A stretch of DNA of 60,680 nucleotides, counting the filler, from Hausera hauseri (Eukaryota), in assembly GCA_046269625.1 (NCBI GenBank). It is 12 parts of 12 records of this genome, joined end to end, with 100 filler letters (N's around TTAATTAATTAA, not from the genome) between each part and the next. Parts side by side here need not be neighbours in the genome. Positions count along the whole stretch, not along the records: positions 55,912 to 60,680 come from JBJURY010442357.1; 11 more parts are not named here. One strand, 5' to 3'. This document shows, piece by piece, positions 3,725 to 60,680 of this stretch. The number at the start of each line of letters is the position of its first letter. Within the stretch, counting starts at the first letter, position 1. A program made the translations under genes and the position numbers. A model generated the notes under the pieces. The model saw only the letters and a list, made by a program, of their open reading frames with translations, searched no databases and was not told the DNA's origin.

Positions 3725-3725
3725 T

Positions 3726-4754: not shown

Positions 4755-7700
4755 ACACCAGAAATCGATCCATTCACACCTACTGAGGAAAAGGAATCAA
4801 CAGATTCGGTTAATGAAATCAACGAGATTTGTCCACTTCCTATTAGTGAGGAAGAAACGGAAGATATTGGTGATTTTGATCCAAAGAAATGGAAAGTTCG
4901 ACGTTCGTGGAAAAACGCCAATGAGTTAAAGAAAATGATAATTAGGTGTCACGACCCAGAAATACTACAGCGAAATTTAGAAAGGCTTAAACAGATTAGC
5001 GAACAAGTAGATATAACCGGAAAAGAACAACAGTATGCTGAGAGGTTATATAAAAGTCTAAAATTATGCAGCGAAGGAAAACTCGATGAAGCAATCAACC
5101 TGGACAACCCGAAGAGGTATCCACTGAGACGATGTCAAAATGGAAGCAAGAATTAAAATCATGGATTAAAAGTGGAGTCGAATTTTCCGAAGGATGGAGC
5201 AGAAACGAAGACAGCGTCGAAGTAAAAGTCACTAAAGCTCAGACGCTATTGTCTACTTTAGAAGCAAACCCAAAATTGAAGAGAATAGTACGCAATCTAG
5301 AGCGCACGATGGATGAAATTCGTTATGCAATGATTAATCGGCTTAGAGAAAAAACAGTTAGTAATCGAAGTAATATCGATTTAGAAATATTGGGTATAGA
5401 CCCAAAAGATATTCTTCCCTTGATGAAGATAATAAAAATCGCATTTGCTGTACCCAAACAATATACAAACCTAGAAAATCGAATCAAAATAGAAAATGTA
5501 AAGCGAGCACAGATTTATAGCTTGAGAAACCGAATTATTTTCCCAAATCACGAGTAGACTCAATACGTAGTAAAGGCTTGTATCATAGAATTGGACGAAT
5601 ATAAGGACGAGTTTAGTTATGTCAGCTGGATTATGAACTTCATAAAAGGGTCAGATGATGAGTTAAAAGGTGCATATAAAATGCTAGATAAGGCTATAAT
5701 CGCAAAGCCAATAATCGCCAACCAATTGTCAGAATGATCCGAATTAGTAACTCGACTAAGTAAATTAGTGGAAAACCGTAGGAAAGAATTTCCAGAAAGC
5801 GAGCCTTCTATAAAAAAACAGTTAGAAGAAAGTTCATGTAACCTAGACACAATAAAGACGGAGATAGATATCCGAATTCAATTTGAAGCATTACGACGAC
5901 TAAAATTTATGAAGAAGAAACAAGAAGCGACGATACTGGAAGAGATTTATAAAATGGTCGAAGAGACAAACTTTACAGAAAAGTGAAATATGACTTGCAA
6001 TTTTTACCAAAGATTGAAAAATGTCAGACTAGAAGAAGTCCAACATTTAACAGATAAACATATCTATGAGATCTCCGCCCAAGATATTGAAACACTAGAT
6101 ATTTGTCCGAAATATCAAGTCGCTTTGACGGACGCAATAAAATTTTTGCATAAAGCACAAGACTGGATGGCCGGATCAGGTCGGAATTTTTATACCGAGT
6201 TGACAAAGATAAGAGATGACCAACATCTTAGTTTTCAGGAAAATAGGTTCGTAAAGAAATTGTTGAATGCAATGGATCCCCACACAAAAGTCATAAATGA
6301 AATGTATGGGTTGGCAAACTTATTGGTAGAAATGGCAGAGATTAATGATGAGAATATGAGGCAATTGATGCCCAAATTACAGCAAGTAGAAGAAACGTGC
6401 ATCAGAACAAAACAAAGAGCAACAAGATTAGATGAACTAACAAAAGAGCTTGAAAGATACCGGAATAAATACGCCTTTACGGAATCAGATATCAAAAATA
6501 AGCAAGAATTTGTACAAAGATGGCAAAGGGATGTGATTATTGAACTAATAGATTATCACCAAAAAGGACTCATCAATTCTAATTAATTAGGCGAATTACT
6601 GAAAATGATTCAGTATTTCTGTGAAAACAGAATAGGTTTCCGAACTACGCAGATGAAAAAAATACAACCAAGATTGAAAGAGATTAGAGAAAATGTGCAA
6701 AGAACAAATACAGCCTTAGTGGGCTATGGACTTCCAGATGTTGGGAATGAACCGGAATGGTATGCGTATTTAGATGCGATGACGGCAGAGAAGCCCGTGA
6801 CTCCAGTACAGCTAAATGAGATAGAAACATGTCCGCAGAACAGGAGGTTTAATGTGGAGATGCTCCTGGATTCAGAGCTAACTGAAAAAGATTTAATCGA
6901 ACTAATTAACGTAAATATTACTGAAGGTAAGTTAAGGCAACTTATTCCTACATTAACTAAATTATCTAGTGAGAATACGATTTACAGCACGATGCCAAAA
7001 CTTTTGATAAGAGAATACTCTAAAATATTGAGGGCTAAACCTGAAGTAGGGATAAAAGTAATGGTATCGTCCGAGTGGATAGACGAAAAAGAATGTGAAT
7101 TAACTACATATTCCTATGTGAGAGACGTAAGAGAATGGTTATTAAACAATGGCGGAACGAATGAGCTAAATTATAGATTTTATTTCAGAGGAAGGATACT
7201 TGATGGTTTAGAACAATTAATAGATGTCGGGATTATACCCGATAAAACAAATCGAATAGTAGTAATAACAGCCAATGAACAAACTAAAAAAGAAACCGCG
7301 AGTAAGGCTAAAACAGAACAATGCGTAGGACAAATTATGGGTGTTCGAGACGCTGCAATATTTTTTGAGTATTTGCAAACGGGCGAAGATAAGGAACAAT
7401 ACGATATAAATTTAGTACCACTGAGTGAAATAACAACAAAAGGCCCAAGGCCGAAACGCACAGTTGGTAGGCCTAAAAAGACGCGAGAAGAAGTCGATTA
7501 CAATGGAGAATTGATCAGAGAACTAAGACAGATGTCGATTCCGACTTTCAGTACAAACAATGAGGAATTAAGCGAGTTAATGAAGAATTTAATACAAATT
7601 GTAAATTATTTAAGCCTTCGAGGTGATATATTAAATGATAAAGAAAAGATAATATTCGATGCAGCTAGAATGATGAGAAGTTAACGTTTTAAACTATCGA

Positions 7701-7993
7701 AAAGTAACTTAACGGATGAATCGGTAATCGAGATGATCATGGTAGAAAACACCAATGAAGAATTGAGAAAAGTATTACTATACTTAGCAATTAAAATAAA
7801 CCCTAATCGGGAGAATTAAATTAATAGGGCTATAAGCTTAGCGCAAAAAGCGGCAAGAAGACTGCTCTGCAAAGTAAATTGGTCAAAACTGTTTGACAAG
7901 GAAGAAGACAGACGGACTAGTAATAAACTTGACAACATGTTACGTAATTTAACAACGGCGGATGTTGGCTATCGGAAAAATGAATCAAACTGA
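4755..7993 (+). pseudogene. Large accessory protein (ORF X) of an env-bearing Ty3/gypsy element, copy A
   Basis: Track ORFs at 5132, 5768, 5990, 6605 and 8093 share one frame, broken only by point stops, plus one frameshift near 5120. Colinear with 56587-59830 (-). Contains a ubiquitin-like segment at 7052-7270. Confidence 0.8.
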
Positions 7994-8752
7994 TTAATTA
8001 GCCTACTGACCTTGATGATGCTAATAAAGCACATAAGCGCTGTTACCGTTAACGACTGAGATAAGTTTAAACTAGGGCAGAGATATTCCCTAATGGATCT
8101 GGAAGTGTGCGAAGATGCCAGACCACACAATTTGGAAACAAGAGAAAAAAATTACTTCCTGTACCAACAACAAGAACTGATATCGTTAAATGGAACGGAA
8201 TGCATGCTGAGACGATTGCGAAGCATTTTTTACTGTGGGCTAATACACGGACATTCCTCTATAATCAAGCCAACAACTCCGCTAATCCCAATGAACTTAG
8301 AACGCCAACACTGCAAACAACTTATGGAGACTTGAAGGATACAATGGACTGTATGCAATTAGAAATGCAACCGGGAGAGATGATTAGGGCATACAAAGTA
8401 GTGGTTGGAAGGTTAGATATGCATTGCGGACATTGTTACGGAGCTGAATACGACACCGGAAAAGGATTGCAAGCAAATGTGGTAGTCGTGGATTTCTACG
8501 AATCGGAGATGCGACCACAGAAAATAATGTTCCATAGTATCACTAAGTTATATACTGAGAATCATAAATGTCATTTACAAGACGGAACCTATGCTTTTAG
8601 AAGTTCTGTTATAATATGGGTACCTCCCTCTGGAAGAAGTTGCAATTTTATTAAAATTAAGGAACTGAAGTTTAATTAAACGACCGGAAAGCGATACGTG
8701 GATAGATTGGATACAAACTCAAGGACATGCGAAGACGTATCGGAACACTCTA
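7994..8752 (+). pseudogene. Chuvirus-like (class III) fusion glycoprotein N-terminal part, copy A
   Basis: Hydrophobic signal LISLLTLMMLI, then (Y/N)D(C/stop)...YSLMDLEVC...LYQQ...ECMLRR..IFYCGLIHGHSS. Frameshift near 8330; truncated by the contig end. Confidence 0.75.
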
Positions 8753-8852: not shown

Positions 8853-10300
8853 TCCGGTAGGTAGTATCGTGAGATTTCCTCAATTCGCCGACTGAGTCTA
8901 CATGTCCGGTTGTTTTCTCGCCCTTTTAAATTCGTGACAGCTTTATGGCCGGTAACAATAATGATTTTCTGCCCGTATACCTATACGTTAAAGTATCGTA
9001 GTGCTTCTTTTACAGCTAATGTTTTTAATTTTGTAACGGAATAAGTCTTCTTGGCTTTTTTTAACGAACGTCCTCCATATACAATTGATTGTTCCATTTC
9101 TTCATTTTCTCGCTTCTGATCTATTTGATATCCAATAACTTCTTTACCGACATCCGTCTTAATTATGAATGGCAAGTTAAACTCCGGGTATCATAAAATT
9201 GGTTCGCTTATTAAGATCTTTATTTCGTCGAAGGCTTTCTGTTCTATATCCGTCCTTTTCCATTTAATTCCTTTATTAAGTAAAAGATACAACAATGAAT
9301 TTACTTTTCAGTTGTCTGCTATATAAGTGGCGTATTATCCGCATAAACCTAGCTAGTGTCGTAACTCTTTCTGATTTTGTGCCTCCATGCAATCTGATAT
9401 TTTAGTCAGCAATGATTTATCTCGTTTTATCCTCCTTTTCCAACTATATGGCCAAGGTAGGGTACTGCGTTTTGAGCCAATATACATTTCTTGGAGTTTA
9501 GCTTTTATCCTGCTTGTTCTAATAGCATCAGTGTATCTTCGATATCCCTTAAATATTCTTCTGTTTTGAAGCTATCACTACGCCATCTAAGTATGCAAAT
9601 GCATGATCTAGTACCATCAGTATTTTATTCAACATTCTTGTAAAAACGGCTGGTCCGGTAGTAATATCAAACGGCATAGCATTAAGCTCATAAACAACAT
9701 CGGGCGTTTTTAACGCTGTTTTATTGCATTCTTCATCATTCATTTCTACTTGCCACTGTCCGGATTGTAAATCCCGAGTAATAATCCATTTTGCTCCAGA
9801 GAGCCTATCTAGAGCTTCTTTCACTGATGGCAGTGGGAAAGAATCTTTCATCATCAGATTATTCAATTCTCTATAATTAATGCAAAATCTGTGTTTTGCG
9901 CTACCTTTCTTTTTAACCCTAAGGATTGGCTTTTATTGACCCAATCTCTATTAGTTTTAGTGCTTGCAAGTCCATTGCTACGTTTGGTAGTCTTTTCAAT
10001 AGATCGCAGCCTAGAACTACATCGTCGGTTAATTGTTCCATAATTGCAAATTTGTGACGAAAAACTGTCCAACTGTGTGAACTTCTGTGTTCCATATAAA
10101 CATCGGTTTCAACATTTGGTCAAAGATTTCTGTGCTACCGGGATACTTCGTTGATGGTGGATACAACTATCCTCTTAACGTTTGAGAAATTGAATCATTT
10201 TTGATGCAAGACATCTTAGAACCTGTGTCGATTAGGGCGTAAACTTCCTAGTTTTCGATAGTGACTTTGGTGAAGGGTTTTCCTTATATTACCGTTTTGT
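8853..10300 (-). pseudogene. Ty3/gypsy pol (protease, RT, RNase H), decayed, copy B
   Basis: VYALIDTGSKMSCI (DTG at 10221-10229); RT DSFPLPSVKEALDRLSGAKW...MPF...FAYLDG; RNase H PFIIKTD...IVYGGRSL...YSVTKL.TLAV. Confidence 0.9.
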
Positions 10301-10949: not shown

Positions 10950-12713
10950 CCATCTGCTTTCTTCATATGGCTTTAAAAACCTTTCGAAAGGTGTTATGAT
11001 CGCAATCAAGATTTTTCATGAGAATCTTGTCAACGTAGATATTTCGTATTCGTTAAATACTGCTTGGATTACTGTCTTCATTAGTTGTATTAAGAAATAT
11101 ATCGCTAGAAATGCGGATGCGGCTTGTCCAAGAATTAGAAATCTTCCACAAATTTTGTATAAGATTTCCGTGGTCACTCGTTGTTAATTGTTTGCACCGA
11201 GCAAAGAGTCCCATGGTATCGAGTATCGTCCACTACTGAGACAATGGCTCGGTTCAATTCATGTGTTCGTTGCAGCGGAAAAGCGAGATATTTTCAAAAG
11301 TCTTCGGTTTTTTTGACCCATATATACTTTCGATGAGATATTCTGGAATTTACCATTTGTAATTCCACTTACGAGATTAGTTCCTGTAAATTTAATTAGT
11401 GCTTCCATTTGGCAGGATTAACCAATCCGTTTCGCTATTTCTAAACATTGATTTTCCTAAACTTGCTTTACTTTCTGTAAGGATTGTTTGCTGAGTCGCA
11501 TTATCTAACAATACTCTAGTAAGTGGCATAACTAAATGAGGCATATTCTGGTATATAACTGCAAGTTCTTGTATGCACCTTTTTTCTTCGACATTGATTG
11601 ATACATCTCATTTTTCACATTCGTAAGTCAACAAGGCTGCACCAGTAACTCGACCGAAAATTCCTTTTGTCATGGAAATTATTAGTGATGCTAACTCCGG
11701 ATTTGAATAAATCAGCGCCAATTTTGTCCTCATGATTTCCGTCGCTTTTTTCATCTTGTGGTATAGTTCGGCTACCCTAACTTGTCCCTTGTAGTAAAAA
11801 TAGTCGTCTCGATTTTTCAAGTAATCCTATATTCGTTTGTTTTCGCACTTATTTCCGTTTGCTCGACTAAAACTCTTCGTAATTAGAGGCAAACATCACT
11901 CCTTCACAACGGGATGTTTTAATAAATGTTATTCCATGAGGGTCGGAGATTAACGTAGTAGGTGTAGAGTGTTCTGTTACATCTTCCCGTGTTTTCTTGT
12001 TGCTGTCAAACTTATTCATATATCGCTTAGCTGTAGTCTCATTGAATTTTAATTCCTTAATTTTAATAAAGTTAAAGTTCCTTTCAGATGGAGGTTCCCA
12101 TATTATAACAAAACTTCTGAAAGCACATATTCCATCCCGTAAATGACATCTTTCATTTTTGATATACAGTTTCGTGACGCTATAAAATATCATGTTCTGT
12201 GCTCGCATGTCCGTTTCGTAGAAATGCACGACTACTATGTTTGCTTCCATTCCTTTACCGATGTCATATTCTGCTCTAATACAGTTTCTGTTATGCATGT
12301 CTAGTCTTACGACCGCTACTTTATATGTTCTAATTATTTTTTCTTGTAGTATTTCAAGTTCTATACCGTCCTCTTGTATGCTTCCTGTTTCCTTAGCCTG
12401 CTTTTAATTATTTCGTTCTACATTCATCGAGATTAAGGGAATGTTTGGTTTGATTAGAGATGAATGTTAACGTGTCAATACTGCAGGACTGTCGTAACAT
12501 GCATCCCATTCCGTCTAATGGTACTAATTTTTGTTGTAGGTATGTGGAGTAGATTTTCTCTTTTGTCTCCAGTTTGTGTGGTCTGGTGTCTTTACACCAC
12601 TCTAAGTCCATCAAGAGGTATTTCTGTCCAAGTTTCAATTTATCGCAGTCATAGACTTTAACGGCACCTATCCGTTTTACTAACATCATCAGGGCAAGCA
12701 ACTGATTTGCCAA
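10950..12713 (-). pseudogene. Near full-length chuvirus-like fusion glycoprotein (env), decayed, copy B
   Basis: Signal + VYDCD N-terminus; GRVTGAALLTYEC..V......CIQELAVIYQN...VMPLTRVL core; C-terminal hydrophobic FLILGQAASAFLAIYFLIQLMKTVIQAVF and KILIAIITPF segments. Confidence 0.78.
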
Positions 12714-13170
12714 TTAGATTCGTTTCTTCGGTTATTATTATTTGTTTTGGTCAGATTTCGTACCATGTCTTCGAGTCTAAAACTATTACTGGACCGTTTG
12801 TCTTGTTCTTTCTCGAATAATTTTGACTAGTATACTTCTCGAGGCTATCTTCTAGCGGTTCTCCATGCCAAACTCGTAGCTTTGTTAAATTAACTGTCTC
12901 TATTGGGATTTCTTTTGATCGCTAAGTACATCAGTACTTTTCTTAGTTCTTATTTTGTGTCTTCTTTCATGATATTTTTATTATCAAATCGTCTGTTAGG
13001 TAAAGATGATAATTTCTTATTATTTTAGTTGTGTTAAATATTGCTTTCGCTTTATCGTGTAATATATTGCCATGGAGGCTTGAACAATTTACGATATGTA
13101 TTAATTTTTTTATTAACTCACTCAATTCTTCGTTTCTTCACTGAAAGTAGAAATTGTCATCTCACTTAAT
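12714..13170 (-). pseudogene. C-terminal part of accessory ORF X, copy B
   Basis: ELSEMTISTFS..NEELSELIKKLIHIVN.SSLHGNILHDKAKAIF aligns with ELRQMSIPTFSTNNEELSELMKNLIQIVNYLSLRGDILNDKEKIIF of copy A. It ends RRNESNW. Confidence 0.75.
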
Positions 13171-14239
13171 TCTCAAAACCAATTGTCAAAATATTTGGTT
13201 TTGACAATAAAAACACAAAAATCATAAATATACAAACAGTTATTAAACTGATTACATTGACGATTAAGCCCAGCACACATTTTTATTATTCAGTAAGCCA
13301 TGCATTAAAAAAATTTCACAGGGTGTGNNNNNNNNNNNNNNNNNNNNNNNNNNNNNNNNNNNNNNNNNNNNTTAATTAATTAANNNNNNNNNNNNNNNNN
13401 NNNNNNNNNNNNNNNNNNNNNNNNNNNTTTTGCACTTGTGTATATTTTAAATTTACGGTTTAGTTTAAATATTTCATTTGTGATTTTTTGGTCAATCCGA
13501 ACATCGTCAATATTTCAATATATTATTTGCTGCCATGATTTTCTTGAATTTTGTTTGGCAATGTCAATTTGTAAATTTTAAGTCAATTCGATTTTTATTG
13601 TGTTTGTCACATTTTATCAATTCAGCAATTTCAGATCATTTTTGGTGGTGACTCGATTTCTTAAAAACAATCAACTTGTGATTTTGCGTTTTAATTTCGT
13701 TGTAACTGAAAATAATTTCGTTATTTGTTTACAAAAAAATAATTTGTTTAAATGTTGTACAGATTTAAAATTTTTGGAAATAAAATTTTGAAATTGATTT
13801 CTGCCATTTTTCAATGAATCCTGCCATTTTGATTTTGTTTGCAATTTGAGAATTGTCGTTTCACTTATAGCAGTTTTCAACCGATTTATTTCAAGGATCT
13901 TGGTGCGTCTTTTTGAATAAGTTGTGGTTTCGACAATTGCGATTTTGAAGACATTTGTTCGGACATTCTGATTTTATATTTTGATCGTTTGACCAGTCAA
14001 AAGTTAGACATCTATTTATATCGTTTTAAAATCTATTTTAGTTATTGATTGTTAATTCCATAATTTAGTCATTTCAGTCATTTTTAATTATTCCTATCAT
14101 TTCGGATATCTTACAATTGCGGATTTTATCATATTGGTCGTTAGATTTCTCTAATTCTGAATTTTTGTCAGTTGACATTTTCACGTCTTTATTATGATTT
14201 TATCGTCGACTTGTTGCATTGTTACAAATAACAATCGGT

Positions 14240-26588: not shown

Positions 26589-27013
26589 GATCTCGTCGCT
26601 TTCTCCGAACTACTTTAGTAAAGTTGTGAATTGTCGGCAACTAATAAACAAACTATCCGAAGCACGCGTTGTGCTCATCCGCGGAACTACTTGACAGCCT
26701 CGCCGAGTAAAGTTTGATGATTTCACTGTCAGTGAGGTACAGAAATTCAATATTTTCACTAATAGTAATCACATATAGCGAACTCTTTCTTTGCAAGCTT
26801 TAAAAAAAAACACTTTGAGCAAGTATTTGTATTCATGCGCATTGAGACGAGTTCGAACGGGCGGTGTTGTACTAAATTCAGTTCCCCTGTGTTGGGAGCG
26901 CCTCCCTCATGTTNNNNNNNNNNNNNNNNNNNNNNNNNNNNNNNNNNNNNNNNNNNNTTAATTAATTAANNNNNNNNNNNNNNNNNNNNNNNNNNNNNNN
27001 NNNNNNNNNNNNN

Positions 27014-45743: not shown

Positions 45744-48700
45744 CAGAGGGAGGAAGAAAACGTCGAAGATGAGGAAGGTGTGGAAGGAAAAAAGTGAGAG
45801 AAAGGGGCGAAAAGGTACAAAACAGAAGAGAGCAAGAAGATGGAAAGGGCAAAGGAAAGTAGTTGGAATGTGGTATGCAAGAGGTTGAAATGATGAAAGA
45901 GGTAGATGGAGAGATTGGTGAAATCGAAGTGGTGTTTGATGGAGTAGGTATTGTAAAAGAAGAAAGCAGGTTGTTATCAGGAGTGAAAGAGGTGTGAAAG
46001 GGCTTGAAGGTGCAAAATGGGATGGGGAAAAAGGCTGAACTGTTAGAAGATATTGAAGTAGAAGTCGTGGGAGAAAACGTAGGGAAAAGTAGATTACGAA
46101 ATGGAGCAGAGATGGAAGGTGAATTGTTAGATTGCTGCGCGTCCTGTAAAGATGTTGGTGGAGAAGTGGTTTCGATGGGAGACGTATCGCGAATGAAGAA
46201 AGCCGGCTTAGCGTTGTTGATGTGGACTGTTATTTCTTTGTCGTCCTTGAGAATGATGATGTGTGAGAGTGTAACCAAATTACTTTGTAAGAACCAACAT
46301 AATGAGGTTGAAAACCACACGGCATCTGATACTTTAGCCATACAAACTTGGCAGTATATAAATCGTCGGGTATGTAAGGCTTATTGCCGTGTAATAGTCT
46401 ACAAAATGAGTCATTGCTGATCTCAACGAAGTGTCTCTGGGCTTGTATGGTTTCGTCTGTAGAAATATTGTCCAGCTCAGCCAGCTCAAATAATGATCTG
46501 ATAGAAGTGTCAAATAATGCTTCTGCAGGTGAACACCCTGTAGACGTAGATGGTGTGTTCCGCCAACCAAGCAGAACGTATGGAAAGAGTGTGGTCCAAC
46601 TGCGATTGGACTCAGCAAGGATTTTAAGAGACGTTTTCATTGTTCGGTTAAAGCGTTAGAGAAGGCCATTCGACTGAGGATGATATGGTGACGTGTGAAT
46701 GCGTTCAATTCCCAATCGATTGACAAGAGATTTAAACAGGTTGGATTGGAACTGTGGGTCTTGGTCCGAAATGATGCGGCCAGGTGATCCAAACCTGCTG
46801 ATCCATGTTCGGATAAAAACGTCTTCGATTGTTTCTGTGCTGGTGCGCCGAAACGGGACAGCCTCTGGCCATAGCGAGGAACAGTCCATCATTGTGAGAA
46901 TAAACTGATGGCCGTTATCTAAAGGTAATGGGCCTACAAGGTCAATGTAAACAGATTCAAAATGAGACGTGCAGGGAAAATGATATAGTGGTGGCTTTAA
47001 GTGCTTAGTAACTTTGTATTATTGGCATGCCACACACTACCTAATCCATGCCTGCACGCCAGAGCGCATCGACGGACATACTACTTGGCGTTGTAAGAGT
47101 CGAAAAGTGGCCTTGACAGCAGAATGGTGCAACGAATGGATGTTGTTGAATGCTTCTTTTTGAAGCGATTCAGAAAGAATGACTTTAGGATTATTAGGCT
47201 TGGTGGTGTCAAACGACACACCGTCGATGGTTTTGCCCGATTTAAAAGATTTAAGGATGTCAGGAGGTGGCTGGTTTTGTTGAAGTTTGGATTGAGGAAA
47301 AACTGGTGTAAAATCAATCGAGCTGACCGACCGAAACAAAAAGTCAGCTTCTAAATTGTCGACTCCGTGTAGGTGCTTAATTTCAAAATTAAATATGGAC
47401 AAATACGATATTTGCCTCTCCTGACGTGAAGAAGGCAATATCATGGTGAGAATTTGAAGCAAGGGATTGTGGTCCGTTTGTATTGTAAAAGTTCGTGCAG
47501 TTAGTAGATGTTTAAAGTGTTTTACCGCAAGGACCGTTGCAAGCAACTCTCGGTCAAAGGTGGAATATCTTTGCTCTTGTGCCGTGAATATTCGACAGAA
47601 GAATTCTAATGGCTCAGGGGATCCATTTTTGACTTGATGGAGGACAGCACCTGCAGCTGTTGTGGATGCATGCGTGGTTAAGAAGAGGGTCGGGATAGGC
47701 CAGGATTTCCACGGTTTTTAGATTATCTTTGAGGTGATCGAAAGCGTTGACTAGCTTAGGGGTCCATTAAATAGGCGATTTTTCTTGCTAGAGCTTAATG
47801 ATGCAAATGGAGCGGTTAGAGTGGAGCAGTGTGAAATAAACTTATGAATAAAGTGCAAGGTTTCGAGGAAAGAACGCATCTCTGTTGATGTACGTGGTAG
47901 CTGTATGTTTTTGAGCTGTGTAATGCGCTCTGGCTTAGGTGAATGTCCGGAAGAGCAAATAACATGTCCTAGGAAGTTGACCTTATGTTGAAAAAAGAGC
48001 ATTTGGAGAAATTAATTTGCAAGTTGTTTTGGTGCAAGCACTGGAAGATTAAACGTCAAAGGTCGGAGTGTTGTTTTGAGGAAGATGATGCAATTAGGAT
48101 ATCATCGCAATAGGGATAAGCAAAGTCTAAACCTGAAAGAACTGTATCAATATGCCTTTGGAAGTTCTGGGAAGCGCTACGGAGTCCAAAAGGCATGAAA
48201 AGGTATTCGAAAAGGCCAAAAGGTGTAATGTCAGCCGTTTTTGGAATGTCTGCTGGTGCCACCGTAACTTGGTGGTATGCTTTGTGTAAATCAATGCAGG
48301 AAAAAATGGTCGAACCATGCAGCCTGTGAAGGATATCGTTGATTAATGGTAGAGGGTAGGCATCCATTGTTGTTATGATGTTGAGTTGGCGGTAATCAAC
48401 GCATGGGCAAAAGGTACCATCCTTTTTGGAACCACATGTAGGGGCGAAGACCACGGGGATTTGGACCTTCTGATTATTCCTGATTTTTCCAGTTCGAGAA
48501 ACTCAATTTCCACTGCCTGTATGCGGCGAGGCGATAGCGGGAGGACCTTTTGATGTATTAGTCTTTAATGTGCTGTTACTATGTGATGAAAAGTGGATTG
48601 AGGTGGTACGAATAATTTGTCCTTTTGCAACAAACGCGTGCAGGAAGACGAAATATATTGCTGTAGGTCAGAAGGCAACGATGAAAAGTTTTCAGATGGT

Positions 48701-48840
48701 GTTGTGACAAGGTGGTATTAGGTGCAGGATGTTCATGTTGAAGATGGTGTTGGCAGCTGTACTATCAGTAATAGGTTCCATGCAGTTAGCAATATCGTAT
48801 TTGTTGCCGTAATAAAAATATCTATATGAATGATTGTAAA
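45744..48840 (-). mobile_element. CsRn1/Kabuki-like Ty3/gypsy fragment (RT-RH-IN-tail), close relative of 17156-22507
   Basis: Colinear nucleotide similarity to ~17800-20750; YPYCDDILI; YHPQSNGLL; 5'-truncated before the protease. Confidence 0.9.
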
Positions 48841-49512
48841 AAATAATTATTTTGTACGTAAAATACCATGCAAGCTATTAAAATGAAATGAAGTAATATC
48901 ATTTTCAGCAACTGCATAAGTTTCTAATAGCTCCGTATGTTCTAATAGATCTTTATGTTCTTAAAAGCTATTCGGACATAAAGAAAAACTTTGCAATTCA
49001 GGAAACTGAGATGGAGTTGCAATTCCAGCAAAGTAAAACGAGTCCCACCAGCAAGTATTGAAATTTATAGAAATCGTTATAATGTTTAGTCTCGGTCCAT
49101 TTTTGGTAATTTTGTGATTCGAGGAGCAGTTTAGCAGAATTTCTGTGATTGCGGCAATGAAGGAAATCGCTAGTAATGGAATGATGTTGGAGACATATTT
49201 AGTAGATTTTTAATGTTGGAATATTGGCATGTAATGTGATTTTTTAATTCTGATGATATTCGTACTTTACGTGGATTGTTGATATTGGAATCTGGGAGAA
49301 GACGGTTGCCGGTTATAACTTAATTTAATATTGAATAATGGAATAAAGTAATCAGCCTTCAAACTATGTTTCGGATTATTTTGCTCAAGTTTTGAATGAA
49401 TGAAAAGACCTTTTCAGAGTGGATCAAACGGTTGGAATTGATCAACGAGTTAGAATGATGTAATTAGATAAAATGGAGTTCTATTGGTGTAGCCAGTGGA
49501 AGAAATGTGAAA

Positions 49513-49795: not shown

Positions 49796-52700
49796 AACTC
49801 ACCGCAATGAGTTGAGTCGAAAAAAATTTTGGACTGACCCAGTTCCGCACACCTGCATATTCAAACTCACCGCAATGAGTTGAGTCGAAAAAAATTTTGA
49901 ACTGACCCAGTTCCTCACACCTGCATATTCCAGATCACCGCAATGAGTTGAGTCGAAAAAAATTTTGGACCGACGCTGTTCCGAACACCTGCATATTCCA
50001 AATCTCCGCAATAAGTTGAGTCTAAAAAATTTGTATCTACCCAATTCCGAACCCCAGTATATTCCAACTCACCGCAATAAATTGAGTCGAAAATAATTTG
50101 GACTGACCCAGTTCCGAACACCTGCATATTCAAACTCACCGCAATGAGTTGAGTCGAAAGAAATTTTGGACTGACCCAGTTCCGCACACCTGCATATTCA
50201 AACTCACCGCAATGAGTTGAGTCGAAAAAAATTTTGGACTGACCCAGTTCCGCACACCTGCATATTCAAACTCACCGGAATATGTTAATTTGAAAAAAAT
50301 TTTGGACTGAAGCAGTTCCGGCCACCTGTACATTCCAACTCACTACAATTAGTTGAGTCGAAAAATATTTGGACTGACACAATTCCGGACACCTGCATAT
50401 TCCAACTTACGGCGATGAGTTGAGTCAAAAAAATATTTTGTTGTGACCTAGTTCCGGACACCTGCATAATCGGACTCACCGCAATCACTTGATTCAAAAA
50501 AAGTTTTGGACTGACCCAGTTCCGGATACCTGCATTTTCCAACTCACCGCAATGAGTTGGGTCGAAAATAATTTTGGACTCCCCCATTTCCGGATACCTG
50601 CACATTCCATGTCACCGAAAAGCGTTAAGTCTAAAAAAATTTTGTACTGTCCCAGTTTCGGACAGCTGCATATTCAAACTCACGGCAATGTGTTGAGTCG
50701 AAAAAAATGTCGGAATGACACAATTCAGAGATCCTGTACATTCCAACGCACCGCATGAGTTGAGTCGAAAAAAATTTTGGACTGACAGTTCTGAACACCT
50801 GCATATTCCAGCGCACCGCAATCCGTTGAGTCGAAAAAAATTTTGGGCTGATTCAGTTCCGAACACTTGCATATTCCAGCTCACCGCAATCCGTTGAGTC
50901 GAAAAAAATTTTCGATTGACCCAGTTCCGAATACCTGCATATTCGTACCCACCGCAGTCAGTTGAGTCTCAAAATAAATTTATCTGACCCACTTCCAAAA
51001 ACCTGCATATTTCAACTGACCGCAATGAGTTGAGCCTCGGAAAAATTTTTGACTAATCCAATTCAGGACACCTGCACATTCCAACCCACCGCAATAAGTT
51101 CAGTCGAAAAAAATTTTGCACTGACACAGTTTCGGATACCTGCACATTCCAGTTCACCGCTATGAGTTAAGTTAAAAAAAATTTAGGACTTACCCAGTTC
51201 CGGACACCTCCATATTCGAACTCACCGCAATGAGTTGAGTCTCAAAATAGTTTTTATCTGACCCAGTTCCGGATACTTGAATATTCCAACTCACGGCGAT
51301 GAGTTGAGTCGAGAAACAATTTGGTCTGACCCAGTTCCGGACACCTGCATATTCAAACTCACCGCAATGAGTTGAGTCGAAAACAATTTGGTACGGACCC
51401 AGTTCCGGACACCTGCATAATCGAACTCACTGCAATCAGTTAAGTAGAAAAAATTTTGGACTGACCTAGATCCGGATACCTGCATTTTCCAACTCACTGC
51501 AATCAGTTGATTCGAAGAAAATTTTGGACTGACACAGTTCGGGACACCTGCATATTTGATCTCACCGCAATGAGTTGAGTCTCAAAAGAGTTTTTGTCTT
51601 ATCCAGTTCCGAACTGCTGCATATTCGTACTCACCGCAATGAGTTGAGTCGAAAAAATTATTGGACTGACACAGTTCCGAACACCTGCATATTCCAGCGC
51701 TCCGAAATTCGTTGAGTCGAAAAAAATTTTCGTTTGACCCAGTTCCGAATACCTGCATATTCGTACCCACCGCAGTCAGTTGAGTCTCAAAATAGATTTA
51801 TCTGACCCAGTTCCGAAAACCTGCATATTCCAACCCACCGCAATGAGTTGAGTCGAAAAAAATTTTGCACTGACACAGTTCCGTACACCTGCATATTCCA
51901 GCGCACCGAAATCCGTTGAGTCGAAAAGGATTTTCGATTGGCCAGTTCCGAATACCTGCATATTCGTACCCACCGTAGTCAGTTGAGTCTCAAAATAGAT
52001 TTATCTGATCCAGTTCCGAACACCTGCATATTTCAACTGACCGCAATGAGTTGAGCCTCAGAAAAATTTTTGACTAATCCAATTCAGGACACCTGCACAT
52101 TCCAACCCACCGCAATAAGTTGAGTCGAAAAAAATTTTGGACTGACCCAGTTTCGGACACCCGCATATTCGTATTCACCGCAGTGAGTTGTGTCGAAAAA
52201 ATTTTTTTACTGACCCTGTTCCGGACCCTTGCATATTCCAACTCACCGCCATTACTTCAGTCGAAAAAAATTTTGGGCTGACCCAGTTCCGGACACCTCC
52301 ATAGTCGAACTCAGCGCAATGAGTTGAGTCTCAAAATAGTTTTTATCTGACCCAGTTCATAATTTCTGCATATTCTTACTCACCGCAATAAGTTGAGTCT
52401 CAAAATAGTTTTTATCTGACCCAGTTCCGGACACTTGAATATTCCAACTCACGGCGATGAGTTGAGTCGAAAAAAATTTTGGTCTGACCTAGTTCCGGAC
52501 ACTTGCACATTCCAACTTACCGCAATGAGTTGAGTCGAAAATTTTTGTACGGACCCAGTTCCGGACACCTGCATTTTCCAACTCACCGCATTCAGTAGAG
52601 TCGAAAAAAATTTTAGACTGACCCAGTTCGGGACACCTGCATATTTGATCTCACCGTAATGAGTTGAGTCTCAAAATAGTTTTTGTTTTATCCGGTTCCG

Positions 52701-53240
52701 AACTGCTGCATATTCGTACTCACCGCAATGAGGTGAGTCAAAACAAATTTTGGACTGACCCAGTTCCGTACACCTGCATATTACATCTCACCGCAATGAG
52801 TTGAGTCAAAAAAATTTTGACTGACCCAGTTCCGTACACCTGCATATTCGAACTCACCGCAATCACTTGAGTCGAAAGAAATTTGGGCCTGACCCAGTTC
52901 CGGACACGTGCACATTCCAACTCACATCAATGAGTTGAATCTGAAAATATTTTGGACTGACCCAGTTCCTGTTACCTGCATATTCCAACTCACCGCAGTG
53001 AGTTGAGTCTAAAAAAATTTTGGTCTGACCCTGTTCCGAACATCTGAAAATTCGTACTCTCCTTAATGAGTTGAGTCGAAAAAAATTTTGACTTACCCAG
53101 TTTTTTACACCTGCATATTCGAACTCACCGCAATGGTTTGAATCTCAAAAAATTTTTTCACTAACCCAGTTCCGGACACCTGCATATATCATACTCACAG
53201 CAATGAGTTAAGTCGAAAATAATTTTGAACTTACACAGTT
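49796..53240. repeat. Tandem satellite, 68-bp unit, about 50 copies
   Basis: Unit AACTCACCGCAATGAGTTGAGTCGAAAAAAATTTTGGACTGACCCAGTTCCGCACACCTGCATATTCA (49796-49863), head-to-tail, with diverged copies. Confidence 0.97.
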
Positions 53241-53329
53241 GCAGGTTCATCCACAGTAATATGGGTGTTTTCTTAAGCATAATGAGCAGTTATATGAGCA
53301 GTATAATGAGCAGTTATATATTGTTTGGA

Positions 53330-55811
53330 TTTGTCAATCTTTTTCGTAGGGATGATTGGGAAGTATCATAGTTTCTTTGGAAATTATTACTGCTTTATTA
53401 CTAACTTTTAGTCTGGCTTCTCCTTGATTGGTAATTATAGCACATGGTGGATCGTTCCTTTTAATAGGATATCGGTATTTTTAAGTATGCTTTATCGATG
53501 CCTTCCATACAAATCAATCCTTGGGTGGCAATATCTTCAAACTCTATTCGGCTGGACTTTCTGTTAATGAATATTTTATCTTAGTTTTGAACTGCATCTA
53601 TGTCCAGACGCTGTAATTTTACCTCCGGAATTAGGGTGGTGTTACATTTTGTTTTTCGTTGGGGATGTCACTCGTCCTTATAAAGAGTCTGCTTGGACGG
53701 TTAAGTTTAATTTTGTATTCTTGTCACAGATTGGTTAATCGTTGGGATAATGTACTTTCTCTTTTCCATTGATCACTTGGTAAATAAAAATTTTGATCTA
53801 CATTAATCGTACCGAAGATGCCTGTTTCATTTAACTGTATTTTCTTAAATAAACACAGTAATTCAATTCCTACAATACGTTTTCCACAGAGTAACTATCT
53901 GAGGCTTTTAGCGCATTTCTCTTTTTCGAGATATAAATTTTTTAACTCAACTATCAAATCACCTTCGATGTTCTCCATTCTTATTCGATTGATTTCCGGT
54001 TCCTGCTCGTCTTCAATAGTTCTTTTACTGCTACGAAAGTTAAGAGTAAGTTTTTGATTTCCTTTCTTTTTGACAATAACATATACAGAAGCGTATTATT
54101 TTCGATATTTGGTACTTTTCATTCTGCTTGATCCAAATATTTTCTCATTATTAAGGGTTTTTCTAAAATAAACATGTTGGATAATGGTTTGCATGTAATT
54201 TTTTCGTGTTCTATTACTGGTTTGGCCATTAATAGTCCCTTAAAGCTAATTTAGCTTGTTCGTTGAAAGTTACTGAGCGATGGGTTGAAACATTCCTTCC
54301 GTCGCTATTACTTTTTTTATTGTCTGACGAGCTTTCTCTTTCTTTTGTGGAATTATTATATGTTGGTATTGCTAAATCAATTTTTCTGTCATTTGGATAC
54401 TTAAGATGTTCCAGAGTCATATTTTTATCATACCTAGATGGGGAAGTATTTCCATTTGATAATAACTTATTTCGTCTTAAGCTATAGTCCAGTGATCGAA
54501 CATATCTGTCGTTATCGTAACTTAGACTGGGAGAAGGGATTAGATTTCGGTCTCTTTGAGCATACAGACTGGGTTTCCTATTATATCTATTCGATTCTAG
54601 TCCATGTGTGGTATAGTAATGTATTCTGTCATAATTCCCAAATCTCGAATCGTTATACCTATTTCTATTATCATTTCCTGAATTACATCTCACTCTACTA
54701 TCACTTCGTCGGTTATCTCTTTCTCTGCTATCATTTCTGTTGAAATTCTCGGCTAAAATCCCTTCTAAGCTTGTCGGGGCTTTCGTTTCGCCTATTGTTG
54801 CGACAGTTGATTCTTAGTCCTTCTGACCGATTAGTTGGATATCGTGTTCGGCTATCATCTCGTCTATAATATGGGTTTACTTAATCATTTTTATTATCAT
54901 AACGATTGGAATATCTATCATTACTGTACCTTTCTCTACTAGGAAATTAGTTTCTGTTGTCATTTCTATCTCTCGAGTAATCTCGTGGTTTATCGTATCT
55001 GGTATCATTCCGCTGTCGATCATCTTAATATATTCTATTTCTTTGATATGAGGTATCTTTTGGATTATTGTTGTAGTCTCTGGATGATTGGTTATAATTC
55101 TCTTTTTCTGAAGCATTACCTGTCTGTGGTATATCACTGTCTTGTCAATTATGGCTTTGGATTCTCGAAGGATCTCTCCTAGTTGAATTAGTACGATTTG
55201 CTACATCTGGTCGTACTAGCAATGGCGTCGTAGCTATTGCTGCGATTTGTGTTTGATTAGTCCAGATAGGAGTTTTGTCTATCCGAGTTGCCATTCGTCG
55301 GGTATATTCTATCAGCTTGTTAAAATTATTTGCTGTGTGAAATTTGACTCCTTCTCGTAAAGGCGGTAAAAGTCCAAGTACAAATGGCTTCATGATCATA
55401 GCCCAAAAAGCTTGTGCGTTCAGACCGAAATATCTATCCATTGCGGTTTTGAACCTATTGATATATGTTAAGGCTTCTTCATTCTGTTTCTGTTTACAGT
55501 TTTAAAATCTTAAATGTCGGTTTTCTTTTATATTAATCTGCTGATTTTGTAAAATTCTTTCTCGATGTTGTGCCCAATTTTTGTCGACACGTATAGGTAA
55601 GCGTGTTATAGCCATTCTTAAGTCATTATTCATATGGACTGGTAAAAGGGATATTTTCTCTGCGTCATCCCAATGCATGGCGGTCGCCAACGAATCATAT
55701 TCGTCTAAAAAATCCTATAAATCGGATACCCGTCCTTCATATAGTTGAAGGCGAAAGAGCATTTGATGTTTGTGTCGTCTCCTTCTTTCATTAATTTTTG
55801 GTAGGTCATAA
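53330..55811 (-). pseudogene. Ty3/gypsy gag (capsid + R/D/N/Y-rich region) followed by an unidentified decayed coding region
   Basis: YEG..SDL.DFLDEYDSLATAMHWDDAEKISLLP...F.NCKQKQNEEALTYINRF...FVLGLLPPLREGV, a retrotransposon capsid pattern, then a long low-complexity tract. Confidence 0.7.
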
Positions 55812-55911: not shown

Positions 55912-56586
55912 TAGTTTCTTAATTTTAATAAAATTGCAGTTCCTTCCCTAGGGAGGTTCCCATATTATAACCGAGCTTCTAAAAGTATAGGTTGCATCTT
56001 GTAAATGACATTTTTGATTCTCAGTATACAATTTAGTGACACTATGAAACATTAACTTTTGTGATCTCATTTCTGATTTGTAGAAGTCTACAACCACTAC
56101 ATTTGCTTCCAACCCTTTTCCAGTGTCGTATTCTGCTCAATTACAATGTCCGCTATGCATATCCAACCTTCTAGCCACTATTTTGTATGCCCTGATTATT
56201 TTACCTGGCTGCATCTTTAATTGCATATTATCCCACTGTATTCTTCCAGTTTCTCTAGCTTGCTTGCAGTGTTGGCGTTCTAAGTTCATTGGAATTAATG
56301 GAGTCGTTGGCTTGATTATGGATGAGTGTTAATGAACTAATCCACAGTGAAAAATGCTACGTGATCGTCTCAGCATACATTCCATTCCATCTAGTGATAT
56401 CAATTCTTGCTGCTGATACAGGAAGTAATTTTTCTCTTTTGTTTCTAACTTGTGTGATCTGGCATCTTCACATATTTCTAGATCCATTAGGGAATATCTC
56501 TGTCCCAGTTTGAATTTATCGCAGTCGTAGACAGTTACAGCGCCTATATGCTTAATTAGCATCATCAAGGTGAGTAGATTAATTAG
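55912..56586 (-). pseudogene. Chuvirus-like fusion glycoprotein N-terminal part, copy C
   Basis: LINLLTLMMLIKHIGA-VTVYDCDKFKLGQRYSLMDLEICED...LYQQQ...ECMLRRSRSIFHCGLVH; colinear with 7994-8680. Confidence 0.78.
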
Positions 56587-59500
56587 TCAATTTGATTCAT
56601 TCTTTCGGCATTCAACGTCGTTTGTTGTTAAATTTCGTAACATATCGTCGAGTCTATTACCGTTTCGTCTATCTTCTTCACTGTCAAATAATCTTGACCA
56701 ATTTACTTCGTAAGGCAATCTTTTTGCTGCTTTTCGTGCTAAACTTACCGCTCTATTGATTTTATTCTCTCGATTAGGGTTTATTTTGACAGCTAAGTAT
56801 AATGGTATTTTTCTTAATTCCTCGTAAGTGTTTTCTATCATGAGCTTTTCGATTACAGCTTCTTCGATTAAATTACTCTTCAATAGTTTAAAACGTGAGC
56901 TTCTCATCGTTCTAGCTGCATTAAATATTATCTTTTCTTTCTTGTCTAATATATCACCTTAAAGGCTTAAATAATTTACAATTTGTATTAAATTTTTCAT
57001 TAATTCGCCTAATTCTTCATTGTTGGTACTAAGGGTCGGAATTGACATCTGTCTCAGTTCCTTAATTAGTTCTCCATTGTAATCTACTTTTTCTCGCGTC
57101 TTCCTAAGCCTACCGACTGGACGTTTCGGCCTTTGTCCTTTCGTTGTTATTTCACTCAGTGGTACTAAATTTATGTCATATTGTTCCTTATCTTCATCTG
57201 TTTACAAATATTCGAAATACAAGGCAGCGTCTCCGACTGCCATAATTTGTCCTACGCATTGTTCTGTTTTAGCTTTGAGTGTGGCTTCTTCTTTAGTCTG
57301 TTCGTTAGCTACTGTTGCTACTACTCCGTTTATTTCGCCGGGAATGATTTCGACCTCTATTAATTGCTCTAGGTCATCAAGCATTTTACCCCTAAAATAG
57401 AATCTCTAATTTAGTTCGTTTGTTCCACCGTTATTTAATAACCATTCTCTCACGTCCCTTACATATGAATGCGTGGTTAACCCACATTCTTTTTCGTTCA
57501 TCCACTCTAATAATATTAATACCTTCATTATTTCTCCGGTTTATCCCTTAAAATTTTAGCGAATTTTTTTATCAAAAGTTTCGGCACCGTTCTGTAAATC
57601 GTATTTTCACTAGACAATTTAGTCAAAGTTGGAACATGTTGTCTTAACTTATTTTCAGTAATATTTACGTTAATTAGTTTAATTAAATCTTTTGCAGTTA
57701 GCGCTGAATCCAGGAGCATCTCCACATCTAATCTCCTGTTTTGTGGGCATGCTTCTACCATTTATTTGTACTGGAGTCATGAGTTTTTCGGCCAGTATTG
57801 CGTCGAAATATGCGTCCCACTCCGGCTCATTTCCGACATGTGGAAGTCCAGAGCCTACCAAGGCTACACTCGTTCTTTGCACATTATCTCGAATTTCTTT
57901 CAACCTGGGCTGTATTTCCGTCATCTGCGTACTCCGGAAACCTACTCCATTCTTACAGGCATACTGAATCATTTTCAGTAATTCACCGAATTCGTTGGAA
58001 TCAACGAGGCCTTTTTGGTTTTAATCCGTTAATTCAATAATTACATTCTTTTGCCATCTTTGTACGAATTCTCGCTTATTTTTGATTTCTGATTCTGTAA
58101 AAGCATATTTGTTTCGGTAGCTTCCGAGTTCTTTTGCTAATTCATCTAGTCTCGTCGCTCTTTGTTTTGTTTTGATGCATGTTTCAATTCGGTGTGGAAA
58201 TTCTGATCTGATCCGGCCACCCATTCTTGCGGTTTGTGCAAAAATCTTATCACGTCTATTATCGTAGCTCGGTGTTCCGGACAGATGTCTAGGGTCTCGA
58301 TATCTTGGACCGAGATCTCATCGATAAGTTTATCTATTAGATGTTGACCTCCTTCTAGTCAGACATTTCTCAATTTTGGATAGAAATTGTATGTCATATT
58401 CCGTTTCTCCGTAAAATTCGTCTCTTTGACCATCTTATAAATTTCTTCCAATAACGTTGCTTCTTGCTTCTTTTTCTTGAATTTAAGTCTTCGTAGTGCT
58501 TCAAACCTCGTTCGGATATCTATTTCTGTTAATACCGTATCCAAATTACGTGCACTCTCTTCTAACTGTTTCTTCACAGAGGGCTCGCTTCCTGGAAATT
58601 CTTTTTTTTGGTCTTCCACTATTTTGCATAATCTCATTACTAATTCAGACCATTCCGACAACTGATGGGCGATTATTGGCTTTGCCATTATAGCCTTATC
58701 TAACATTTTGTATGCGTCTTTTAATTCATCATCTGGTTCTTTTATAAAGCTAATAATCCGGCTAACATAACTAAATTCGTCTTTATATTCGTCAAATTTC
58801 AGGATGCATGCTTTTACTACGTATTTAGTTTCTTCATTGTTTGGAGACATAATCCGATTTCTCAGACTATAAATCTGAGTTCGTTTTTTATTTTCTATTT
58901 TGACCAGATTTTCCAAATTCGTATATTGTTTGGGCACAGCAAATGCGATTTTTATCATTTCCATTAAAGGAGGCATATCTATTGGGTCTATACCCAATAT
59001 TTCTAAGTCTACATTACTTTGACTATTAACCGATTTTTTTCTGAGTCAATTGACCATCGTGCAACGAATTTCATTCATCATACGTTCTAAATTTCGAACT
59101 ACTCTCTTTAGTTTTGGATTCGCTTCTAGGCTAGCCAAAAGTGTTTTAGTCTTAGTGACTTTTATATCCACTCTATCTTCGTTTTTGTTCCATCCTTCTG
59201 AAAATTCTACTCCGCTTTTAATTCATGCTTCTAATTTATGCTTCCATTTTGACAATGTTTCATGTGATATCTCTTCAGGTTGCCCTAAGTCAATTGCTTC
59301 GGCGAGCTTTCCTTCATTGCATAGTTTTAAGCTTTTATAAAGTCTCTCAGCAAACTGCTGTTCTTTTCCGGATATATCCACTTGTTCTCTAATCTGCTTG
59401 AGCCTCTCTAAATTTCGCTGTAGTACTTCTGGTTTGAGGCACCTAATTCTCATTTTCTTTAGTTCATCGGCGTTCTTCCATGAACGTCTTACTTTCCATT

Positions 59501-59830
59501 TTTTGGGTCACAATCGTCAGTATTTTCCATTTCTTTCTCATTAATGGGAAGCGGACAAATCTCGTTATTCTCGTTCGTTGATCCTATAGACTCTGCGGTT
59601 TCGACAGGCGTGAGTGACCCGATTTCTGATGTATTTACATTATGTCCTATGCCGTCTTCTATAACGATGTTCGGACTTTCTGTTTCTTCAATTCTCTGTC
59701 TAGTTACTTGAGAACGTGAACGACTCATACGTTTCGTCTTAAATGAAGGGCTACGACCTCTATTTTTTGTAATTTTAAGTATTAATGGCTCCATAAATTC
59801 CCTTTCTGCTGTATCGTCCTTAATAAACTT
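56587..59830 (-). pseudogene. Large accessory protein (ORF X), copy C
   Basis: Series of ORF pieces colinear with copy A from CPLPI to RKNESN; ~190-bp internal deletion near 58190. Confidence 0.8.
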
Positions 59831-60680
59831 ATCTACTTCTCAACCGTGAACTCAGGCGCTGCGTCTAAGTCGACTTCCGTTGAGGAGCCTGGTTTATCCA
59901 ATGGTTTATTACTTGTTGGAACACCCTTTTTTCCGTGTCATGTCGCTTCGTTTGGTGCTATCACTTGCTCATAGTAGTTTCTGGTTTCACTAATCCATGA
60001 AATACTTCTAGTAGCCTTAGTTTATTTCCGTACTTTTTTTTAGCCATCAAAATTTGTGGATTACTGGATTCAGGCTGAGTGTCTAAAAACTTCCGTAAAT
60101 CTTGTATATCGATGATAGTGCCTGTATCCCCTCGAACGCCATACTTCGCTTCTAAATTTTCGTCAGTTCTGATCATACTAGTCTTATTTGGCTTAGTAAA
60201 TAAAACGCTACGTGGGTTTGAACATGATCTCGAAATATTTCCTTCTTTACCACAAGTAAAACAGACTAGATTCCCATTTCTACCGACTTTTGTCGACCGT
60301 CTTTGTTCACTCGTGACTTGGATCTGTTCATACTTTTATTATATTGGTTTGACGAACTTTAGGCATTATCTACATTTCGTCGATTACCCATATTTCGATT
60401 ATCGCCATTTTGATATGAGTAATTCGAGCATTTACCATTTTTTTCTATTCCTATCCCAGTTCAAATCTGATCTATTTGTATTAGTATAATTGTTACCTCC
60501 GCCATTCTTGTAACTGCTATTTCGATTCCCATAATTTTTGTTATCCGTAAATCGTCTGTCATCTCTTCCACGATTGTCGTACCGATTTTTACCGTTACGG
60601 TCGTTTCGATCGTTATTCCTATCATTTCTATCGTTATGTCTGGCGTATCTATCGAGTGCCATTTCTAAATCTTGGGCTAA
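59831..60680 (-). pseudogene. Gag C-terminal region (R/D/N-rich tract + zinc knuckle), copy C
   Basis: RNDRNDRNNDRNDRN tract; CFTCGKEGNISRSC at 60222-60263 (CCHC knuckle with H>N, a one-base change). Confidence 0.72.

Follow-up and report, generated by a model that had tools for sequence, protein, structure and literature searches.

A long accessory region (here called X) that lies between a gag zinc knuckle and an env gene in the genome of Hausera hauseri (assembly GCA_046269625.1) is probably the accessory central part of a polyprotein whose genes run gag-X-env-pol, in a Ty3/gypsy element that is Burro-like and carries env. It was analysed in a stretch of 60,680 nucleotides (nt; the window) made up of 12 unrelated contigs joined via N44-linker-N44 spacers, in which three copies of the element, A, B and C, are found on separate contigs of 4-5 kb each; all three are truncated, and all are dead, decayed copies. 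X has co-diverged with env and shares its reading frame in copy A; it is almost certainly a real coding sequence, encoded by the element and kept by selection. In copy B env stands before pol. It is likely composed of a disordered linker, a coiled-coil scaffold, a ubiquitin/SUMO-like domain and a BCL-2-like domain, and most likely corresponds to the accessory block already known from Burro-type elements in a compact form, with one variant feature, a UGA codon at its border with env. The contigs that carry the three copies are the following.

4755-8752, plus strand: copy A, accessory region and N-terminus of env
8853-13327, minus strand: copy B, C-terminus of the accessory region, env and pol
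55912-60680, minus strand: copy C (JBJURY010442357.1), knuckle, accessory region and N-terminus of env

Coding capacity and selection

By self-blastn, copies A and C match in two blocks (79.8% over 1,384 nt and 81.4% over 2,276 nt), parted by 190 nt that A keeps (A 6202-6391) and C has lost (deletion at C 58185), and A and B match at 68.6% over 1,242 nt. Copy A can be read in a single frame between 5102 and 8329, across 8 stops, and this frame leads from X straight into env; 16 aligned stops are listed in this main frame, 15 of them private to A or C and one common to both, which bears out the original prediction that the two copies align and carry different lesions. The ratio of nonsynonymous to synonymous substitution (dN/dS) between A and C, taken over codons with neither gap nor stop in either copy, is 0.14 (95% bootstrap confidence interval 0.11-0.17; dN 0.12, dS 0.91; 998 aligned codons), against 0.94 and 1.10 in shifted-frame controls, indicating that the coding region predicted to follow the knuckle is real; a neutral-rate outcome, near 1, was not obtained. 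Purifying selection is seen in every one of seven sub-regions of X (dN/dS 0.10-0.18) and is nearly as strong as in env (0.14 vs 0.08). Since the whole stretch is under such selection, including the parts without a domain call, X must have been needed for replication.

The same figures bear on the possibility that X is foreign to the element, as a host gene or a second transposon that came in after gag. It would agree with such an origin that X has no database relatives beyond one fragment of 150 amino acids (aa), and that ubiquitin-like and BCL-2-like domains are ultimately host-like. However, X adjoins env in all three copies, is in frame with it in A, where the X frame has no intron-like interruptions, and is under purifying selection as env is; moreover, dS is equal in the two (0.91 in X and 0.94 in env), which argues against a later insertion and leaves this origin extremely improbable.

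The original prediction had described X as about 1000 aa long, with only small frameshifts and conserved in three copies. The long coding region stands, but once the 190 nt lost from C are added, its size comes to ~1,150 codons when counted from 59839 and to ~1,270 when counted from the knuckle. Copy C changes frame after the knuckle near 59975 and 59845, and differs from A by further indels at C 59501, 59286, 58185, 57759 and 57537; of these, the 190-nt loss exceeds a small frameshift. Conservation in three copies holds for the last ~150 codons only. In composition X is rich in E (10.6%), L (10.0%), K (8.8%) and I (8.5%), it is largely helical, and it contains no Pfam match to protease (PR), reverse transcriptase (RT) or integrase (IN); an E/K/L-rich, helical make-up without such motifs had been anticipated. 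The remaining stretches of X outside copy C are:

4755..7990, plus strand: accessory region of copy A, single frame from 5102, six stops
12714..13174, minus strand: C-terminal remnant of the accessory region in copy B (tblastn 46-56% to A; dN/dS against A 0.06, with dS saturated)

Homology in copy B begins at ~13174-13146, 150-180 nt from the end of its contig. The T-rich start of this contig (13175-13327) has no match to A, C or anything else substantial in the window, and may represent either a breakpoint or a different upstream region.

Env, pol and the order of the element

No single contig carries all parts of the element, and the order gag-X-env-pol follows from overlapping copy C (knuckle, X, env) with copy B (X, env, PR, RT, RNase H (RH)), the junction with gag being covered by copy C only. 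The features of env and pol are:

56530..56586, minus strand: hydrophobic signal/anchor helix, directly 3' of the UGA; the PF24664 match starts just after it
55912..56529, minus strand: N-terminal part of copy C env, class III (gB/mononegavirus-type), cut by the contig end, dN/dS 0.08
7994..8752, plus strand: N-terminus of copy A env, PF24664 profile positions 19-116, E 2.2e-7
10983..12713, minus strand: copy B env, PF24664 at E 1.6e-8 and 1.8e-9
8864..10280, minus strand: copy B pol, with PR at 10280-10188, RT at 9917-9552 and RH at 9250-8864

PF24664 (Monjiviricetes fusion glycoprotein) exceeded its curated cut-off in three of the four env segments scanned and gave no match in a fifth, B 11870-12403; by eye, the env also resembles six Schmidtea env rows in the supplement of PMC13524379. 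The signal helix contains the highest Kyte-Doolittle 19-mer in the 1,076-aa translation of A (1.92; the best elsewhere among the top eight listed is 1.09), and a transmembrane helix of copy B env lies near 11144-11055 (hydropathy 1.88). In copy B a common frame, broken by stops, takes in the second half of env, a spacer and PR, and Pfam matches to RVP (E 0.078 and 0.014), RVT_1 (E 1.5e-12) and RT_RNaseH_2 (E 3.3e-19) give the order PR-RT-RNase H with an RVT_1-type RT, which in Ty3/gypsy elements (Metaviridae) is followed by the integrase. This position of pol 3' of env, like the stop common to A and C that is treated below, goes beyond the original prediction. Neither a long terminal repeat nor an integrase of this family is visible in the window, the integrase region of copy B and the capsid region of copy C lying past the contig ends. 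Copy B also has ~270 codons without a Pfam match (10280-11050, minus strand) that separate the transmembrane helix of env from the protease and make up a second segment of the element that lacks an assignment.

Domains of the accessory region

In copy C the following features can be placed from gag towards env.

60219..60266, minus strand: Gag CCHC zinc knuckle (Pfam zf-CCHC E 0.023, under the curated cut-off)
59500..60218, minus strand: low-complexity linker, probably disordered, with frame changes near 59975, 59845 and 59501 (from stop counts per frame)
57546..59499, minus strand: helical block, Smc-like by analogy only, dN/dS 0.10-0.18
57301..57545, minus strand: candidate ubiquitin/SUMO-like domain (from Atlas); equivalent in A 7034-7279
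56668..57039, minus strand: helical domain, probably BCL-2-like (motifs by eye); A 7541-7912, B ~12776-13146
56587..56589, minus strand: UGA at the X/env border; the aligned A 7991-7993 is also UGA, and B has a sense codon

Upstream of the single weak knuckle seen in copy C, the translation continues as an R/N/D-rich spacer that reaches the window end at 60680, with the capsid region past it. The linker downstream has a FoldIndex of -0.12 (stop-free 59492-59839) and a dN/dS of 0.15 where A overlaps, its outer part (59632-60218) being present in copy C only. A continuous Gag-X fusion, as originally predicted, is a rather likely reading of this arrangement: coding sequence does follow the knuckle, but the junction is seen in a single decayed copy and includes two frame changes, so that a separate open reading frame (ORF) or a programmed shift is also possible.

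The helical part of X likely comprises two amphipathic/coiled-coil blocks that form a coiled-coil scaffold. Seven of 31 windows along the translation of A show heptad periodicity (z 2.7-3.9) and fall into two clusters, and the amphipathic/heptad stretches of copy C lie at ~58837-58527 and 58297-58087, the second partly lost in the 190-nt deletion. The block has no Pfam match to SMC. A phmmer search against 1.84 billion protein representatives returned one match, an unnamed ENA fragment of 150 aa (P0003; E 1.5e-18, 36-38% identity), which aligns to C 58248-57811 and overlaps the second heptad cluster.

For the stretch at 57301-57545 a ubiquitin/SUMO-like identity is quite likely, on the lead given by Atlas: with 82 aa of copy A as query, five of 30 matches carried a Pfam name, and all five were PF00240 or PF11976 (ubiquitin/Rad60-SLD), with scores of 0.91-0.92. 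Weighing on the other side, these matches share 158-168 features, under the guide value of 170, no Pfam HMM matches the stretch, and the best match of a PDB profile search was IQUB at E 0.57 only. A captured mononegavirus N/P/M block upstream of G was also considered for X and rejected, as neither Pfam nor fold comparison supports it and the ubiquitin-like lead argues against it.

The last helical domain is probably better explained as BCL-2-like than as a matrix domain, since position and motifs fit the former better, although fold comparison does not separate a BCL-2 fold from matrix-like or capsid-C-terminal-domain-like bundles; the BCL-2-like identity is thus favoured with some reserve. 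By eye, BH3-, BH1- and BH2-like motifs can be picked out in the domain, the BH3-like one as LxxxGD and the BH2-like one as an end that contains Trp, together with a central helix that is hydrophobic; its AF2 model has about six helices (pLDDT 47). In a second look at the fold alignments, BCL-2 family members made up nine of 50 rows at Z 3.1-3.5, mostly pairing model residues 38-140 with Bcl-xL 91-195. Several observations tell against this identity. Both AF2 models are of low confidence (pLDDT 33 and 47); the BCL-2 rows score below unrelated rows at Z 5-6, and Bcl-xL has many entries in PDB; neither Pfam nor a PDB profile matches the domain; and Atlas, queried with the stop-free last ORF of copy C, returned only unnamed helical clusters and a sigma70_r2 set, in a search that covered the domain after its first 35-40 residues. 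PDB sequence searches with the ubiquitin-like stretch, the last domain and a piece of env gave nothing under E 0.2, Foldseek gave 0 matches at E<=0.001 in the pdb and viral sets, and the best values in VIA fold searches were Z 6.3, 6.0 and 5.8.

It had been proposed that the ~160 aa before env, being kept in all three copies, form a matrix or assembly domain, here of an otherwise unrelated orphan extension. An all-helical domain beside a membrane helix would suit that role, and the fold searches include the HTLV-1 and HTLV-II matrix at Z 5.5 and 4.8 and, for the longer model, retroviral or retrotransposon capsid chains in seven of 50 rows (best Z 5.8). Against this, these Z values fall within the stated background for helical models, and the models are under pLDDT 50; the argument from three copies is weak because copy B is cut by its contig end and because selection on these last ~160 codons (dN/dS 0.11) is no stronger than in the rest of X (0.10-0.18). 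Position and motifs, furthermore, match the BCL2-like domain described for Burro (PMC6431247), and the proposal in that form found no support: a matrix domain is improbable here. Retroviral matrix is a helical, membrane-targeting domain at the N-terminus of Gag, unlike the domain of X, which is not N-terminal.

A stop codon at the border of X and env

The UGA at the end of X is the sole feature that the Burro-type layout leaves unexplained. It is the stop common to A and C, and the one helix in the translation of A that is strongly hydrophobic follows it immediately. The rates of private stops predict 0.07-0.11 shared stops over all 1,235 codons and 0.0002-0.004 at a single named site, figures to be read in the light of the site having been noticed after the fact. 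As this site is a domain border, the UGA is, with good probability, a real feature of the A/C lineage. Env remained under selection in both A and C and must therefore have been expressed past the stop.

Readthrough is the simplest mechanism by which this may happen, and it is given just short of an even chance, with coincidence or splicing as possible alternatives. Across copies, a hydrophobic coding pattern is preserved in the 7 codons that lead from the UGA to the first Met, and starting at this Met would leave ~9 residues before the env match, which is too short for a signal. Two results speak against readthrough: no RNA structure that would stimulate it was found downstream of the UGA (z 0.2-0.6 for the single sequences, with a consensus energy of -8.8 kcal/mol), and A and C do not have the same base at +4. 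A C at +4 favours a leaky UGA and is present in copy C only.

Alternatively, X might be a separate accessory ORF, with its own start or a programmed frameshift, in which case env would be made from a spliced mRNA and the UGA would be the normal stop of X. Spliced env is usual in insect errantiviruses. The two frame changes after the knuckle in the sole copy that covers it, together with the UGA common to A and C, would be expected under such an arrangement, and some of the domains occur as separate accessory ORFs in Burro relatives (PMC6431247). However, the hydrophobic pattern of the 7 codons, the short distance from the first Met to the env match, the sense codon of copy B at the UGA position and the lack of an AG acceptor common to all three copies right after the stop make a separate ORF unlikely. 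The literature searches returned no paper on a stop at the X/env border of Burro, although Grohme et al. 2018 may describe such variants.

A working model for the accessory polyprotein

If X is the Burro-like accessory block, Gag-X would be made in the cytosol, and the single hydrophobic helix after X would serve as an internal signal directing the ectodomain of Env into the endoplasmic reticulum; the transmembrane helix of Env would then bring the chain back to the cytosolic side, where PR-RT-RH is made. Once the signal has been cleaved, the first helix might stay behind as a tail anchor of Gag-X, in the manner of cellular BCL-2 proteins, and could hold Gag at the membrane during budding in place of an N-terminal matrix. 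The coiled-coil part may serve as spacer or scaffold. In the producer cell, the BCL-2-like and ubiquitin-like domains would most likely delay apoptosis or act on ubiquitin pathways; the host-modulating function originally suggested for X is plausible, and an anti-apoptotic role in particular is proposed tentatively. In the A/C subfamily the UGA before the helix would yield mostly soluble Gag-X, with a minority of readthrough products giving anchored Gag-X and Env-Pol.

Taken in full, a Burro-like subfamily forming enveloped particles from a Gag-coiled-coil-Ubl-BCL2/Env/Pol polyprotein, with a captured BCL-2 tail anchor that doubles as Env signal in place of matrix and a programmed, leaky UGA as switch from soluble Gag-X to anchored Gag-X with Env-Pol, is a speculative and rather unlikely combination. 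If true, it would join a flavivirus-like polyprotein topology to stop suppression within one retrotransposon, whose host may lie outside Dugesiidae.

Other sequences in the window

The remaining contigs hold other mobile elements, repeats and host sequences. At 1-4654 (minus strand) there is a Ty1/copia element with an unbroken gag-pol ORF of 1,186 aa; because the first and last 77 nt of this contig are identical and the ORF runs across them, the contig has the appearance of a repeat, from a young family, that was collapsed and circularised. Another gag (53240-55811, minus strand; Retrotrans_gag E 0.006) has a very long R/N/D-rich spacer and ~1 kb of decayed downstream sequence with no Pfam match in three frames, and may be a second large-gag family. 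Its fragment at 55001-55810 was considered as a member of the X element family but could not be shown to be one, since the A translation gave no tblastn match there and none with C was among the tblastx matches listed. Decayed Ty3/gypsy elements, mostly 64-85% identical to each other, lie at 14265-21260, 27960-31150, 41780-45600 and 45744-48850; no env was noticed in them in passing, and the element at 41780 has several knuckles. Fragments of a hAT transposase (Dimer_Tnp_hAT, zf-C17orf113) are present at 22645-26609 (minus strand), and ~51 copies of a 68-bp satellite, with 77% matches, at 49796-53240. Two regions are host-like: a fragment of a spectrin-repeat gene at 39770-41360 (minus strand; PF00435, E 2.6e-8), and a long gene at 32339-36385 (minus strand) with C2H2-type zinc-finger-like repeats by eye and no convincing Pfam match, whose one frame passes through three stops that apparently lie in short in-frame GT-AG introns.

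Comparison with Burro and other known systems

The ORF1 of the planarian element Burro/GYPSM1 has been described as encoding, in order, a Gag with knuckles, Smc, MATH, a Ubi2/SUMO-like domain (PF11976), a BCL2-like domain, Env, PR, dUTPase, RT, RH and IN; this ORF1 is described as continuous, its Env resembles mononegavirus fusion proteins, and the role of its annotated accessory domains has been termed worthy of experimental confirmation (PMC6431247). Burro elements exceed 25-30 kb, bear long terminal repeats and are found in dugesiid hosts; the contigs examined here measure 4-5 kb. The element of H. hauseri is alike in its weak CCHC knuckle match, long and perhaps Smc-like helical stretch, PF11976-type lead, helical domain with BH-like motifs by eye, mononegavirus-like env and PR-RT-RH, as well as in the position of env between gag and pol. 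It is unlike Burro in that the UGA common to A and C breaks the frame before env, and in that one knuckle is seen, its upstream part being cut off, as opposed to 2-3 knuckles and a retrotrans_gag domain. Judged by domain order, a Burro-like architecture is very likely, and because this order is that published for Burro, X is probably not the orphan it was first taken for.

Some results count against such a relationship. X contains no MATH, BIR, ankyrin or midasin match (by Pfam, and by pattern for BIR), although upstream accessory ORFs would fall outside the window and the MATH, BIR and ankyrin domains vary among Burro members. No dUTPase match was found between PR and RT in copy B, where only ~120 codons separate the PR motif (10280) from the start of RVT_1 (9917) and thus leave no room for one, though this decayed copy may have lost it by deletion. 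Neither phmmer nor the word-based and profile searches returned a Burro protein, in libraries whose Burro content is uncertain. These comprised word-based searches with the whole of X against proteins of 1,687-4,815 aa, which gave nothing, and with the RT of copy B against proteins of 2,611-5,000 aa, which gave no homologue among 23 candidates, as well as one in which a profile built on the last domain and the start of env was compared with proteins of 491-2,000 aa, which also gave nothing; each blank is weak evidence. As no Burro protein came back for direct homology comparison, the element is called Burro-like and not a proven member.

It could also be that these copies represent an independent gag-X-env-pol lineage, not derived from Burro, that captured similar ubiquitin-like and helical domains. 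Elements of the GAG-ENV-POL type with an HSV/gB-type env are reported from Platyhelminthes, Nematoda and Bryozoa and are not monophyletic (PMC13524379), which, with the lack of detected MATH, BIR or dUTPase and of a direct Burro match, would allow for a separate origin. However, a ubiquitin-like domain, a helical domain with BH motifs, the same env class and pol make a specific order to arise twice, and the env is, by eye, like the Schmidtea rows, so that independent descent is scarcely likely and a Burro-like origin is preferred. The present element shares with these errantiviruses the ORF order, a class III env and an ectodomain possibly set between two membrane helices, some GAG-ENV-POL ectodomains being flanked by two transmembrane helices (PMC13524379). 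A large accessory region is compatible with them as well, because their Schmidtea and Prostheceraeus members span 14.3-18 kb (Schmidtea 14.5-18 kb), although the main text of PMC13524379 uses none of the words 'ubiquitin', 'readthrough', 'frameshift' and 'accessory'. Transcripts of BURRO1 have been reported in intestinal cells after PIWI loss (PMC8532177).

Members of the BCL-2 family are helical bundles built round a central hydrophobic helix, with BH1-BH3 motifs. Viral BCL-2 homologues (pox, herpes, adintovirus) offer a further comparison, as in them, too, a hydrophobic tail comes after a helical domain that has BH-like motifs, which makes an anti-apoptotic role plausible; unlike them, the candidate described here is embedded in a Gag-side polyprotein, its tail doubles as the putative env signal, and its fold is tentatively assigned by motifs and position. 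In-frame stop suppression, in turn, is known from gag/pol of MuLV, from the UGA between gag and pol of Tca2 and from pol/env of SIRE1 (PMC2194720). The candidate stop described here differs from these in that it would separate an accessory region of Gag from a block of Env and Pol, and in that no downstream structure was found; as in all three, a single in-frame stop parts two coding blocks and could set their ratio. How a gag-env-pol element with a single frame sets the ratio of Gag to Env and Pol is a question that this layout raises, and one possible answer is the stop at the signal helix, which is common to two copies that have diverged well from each other.

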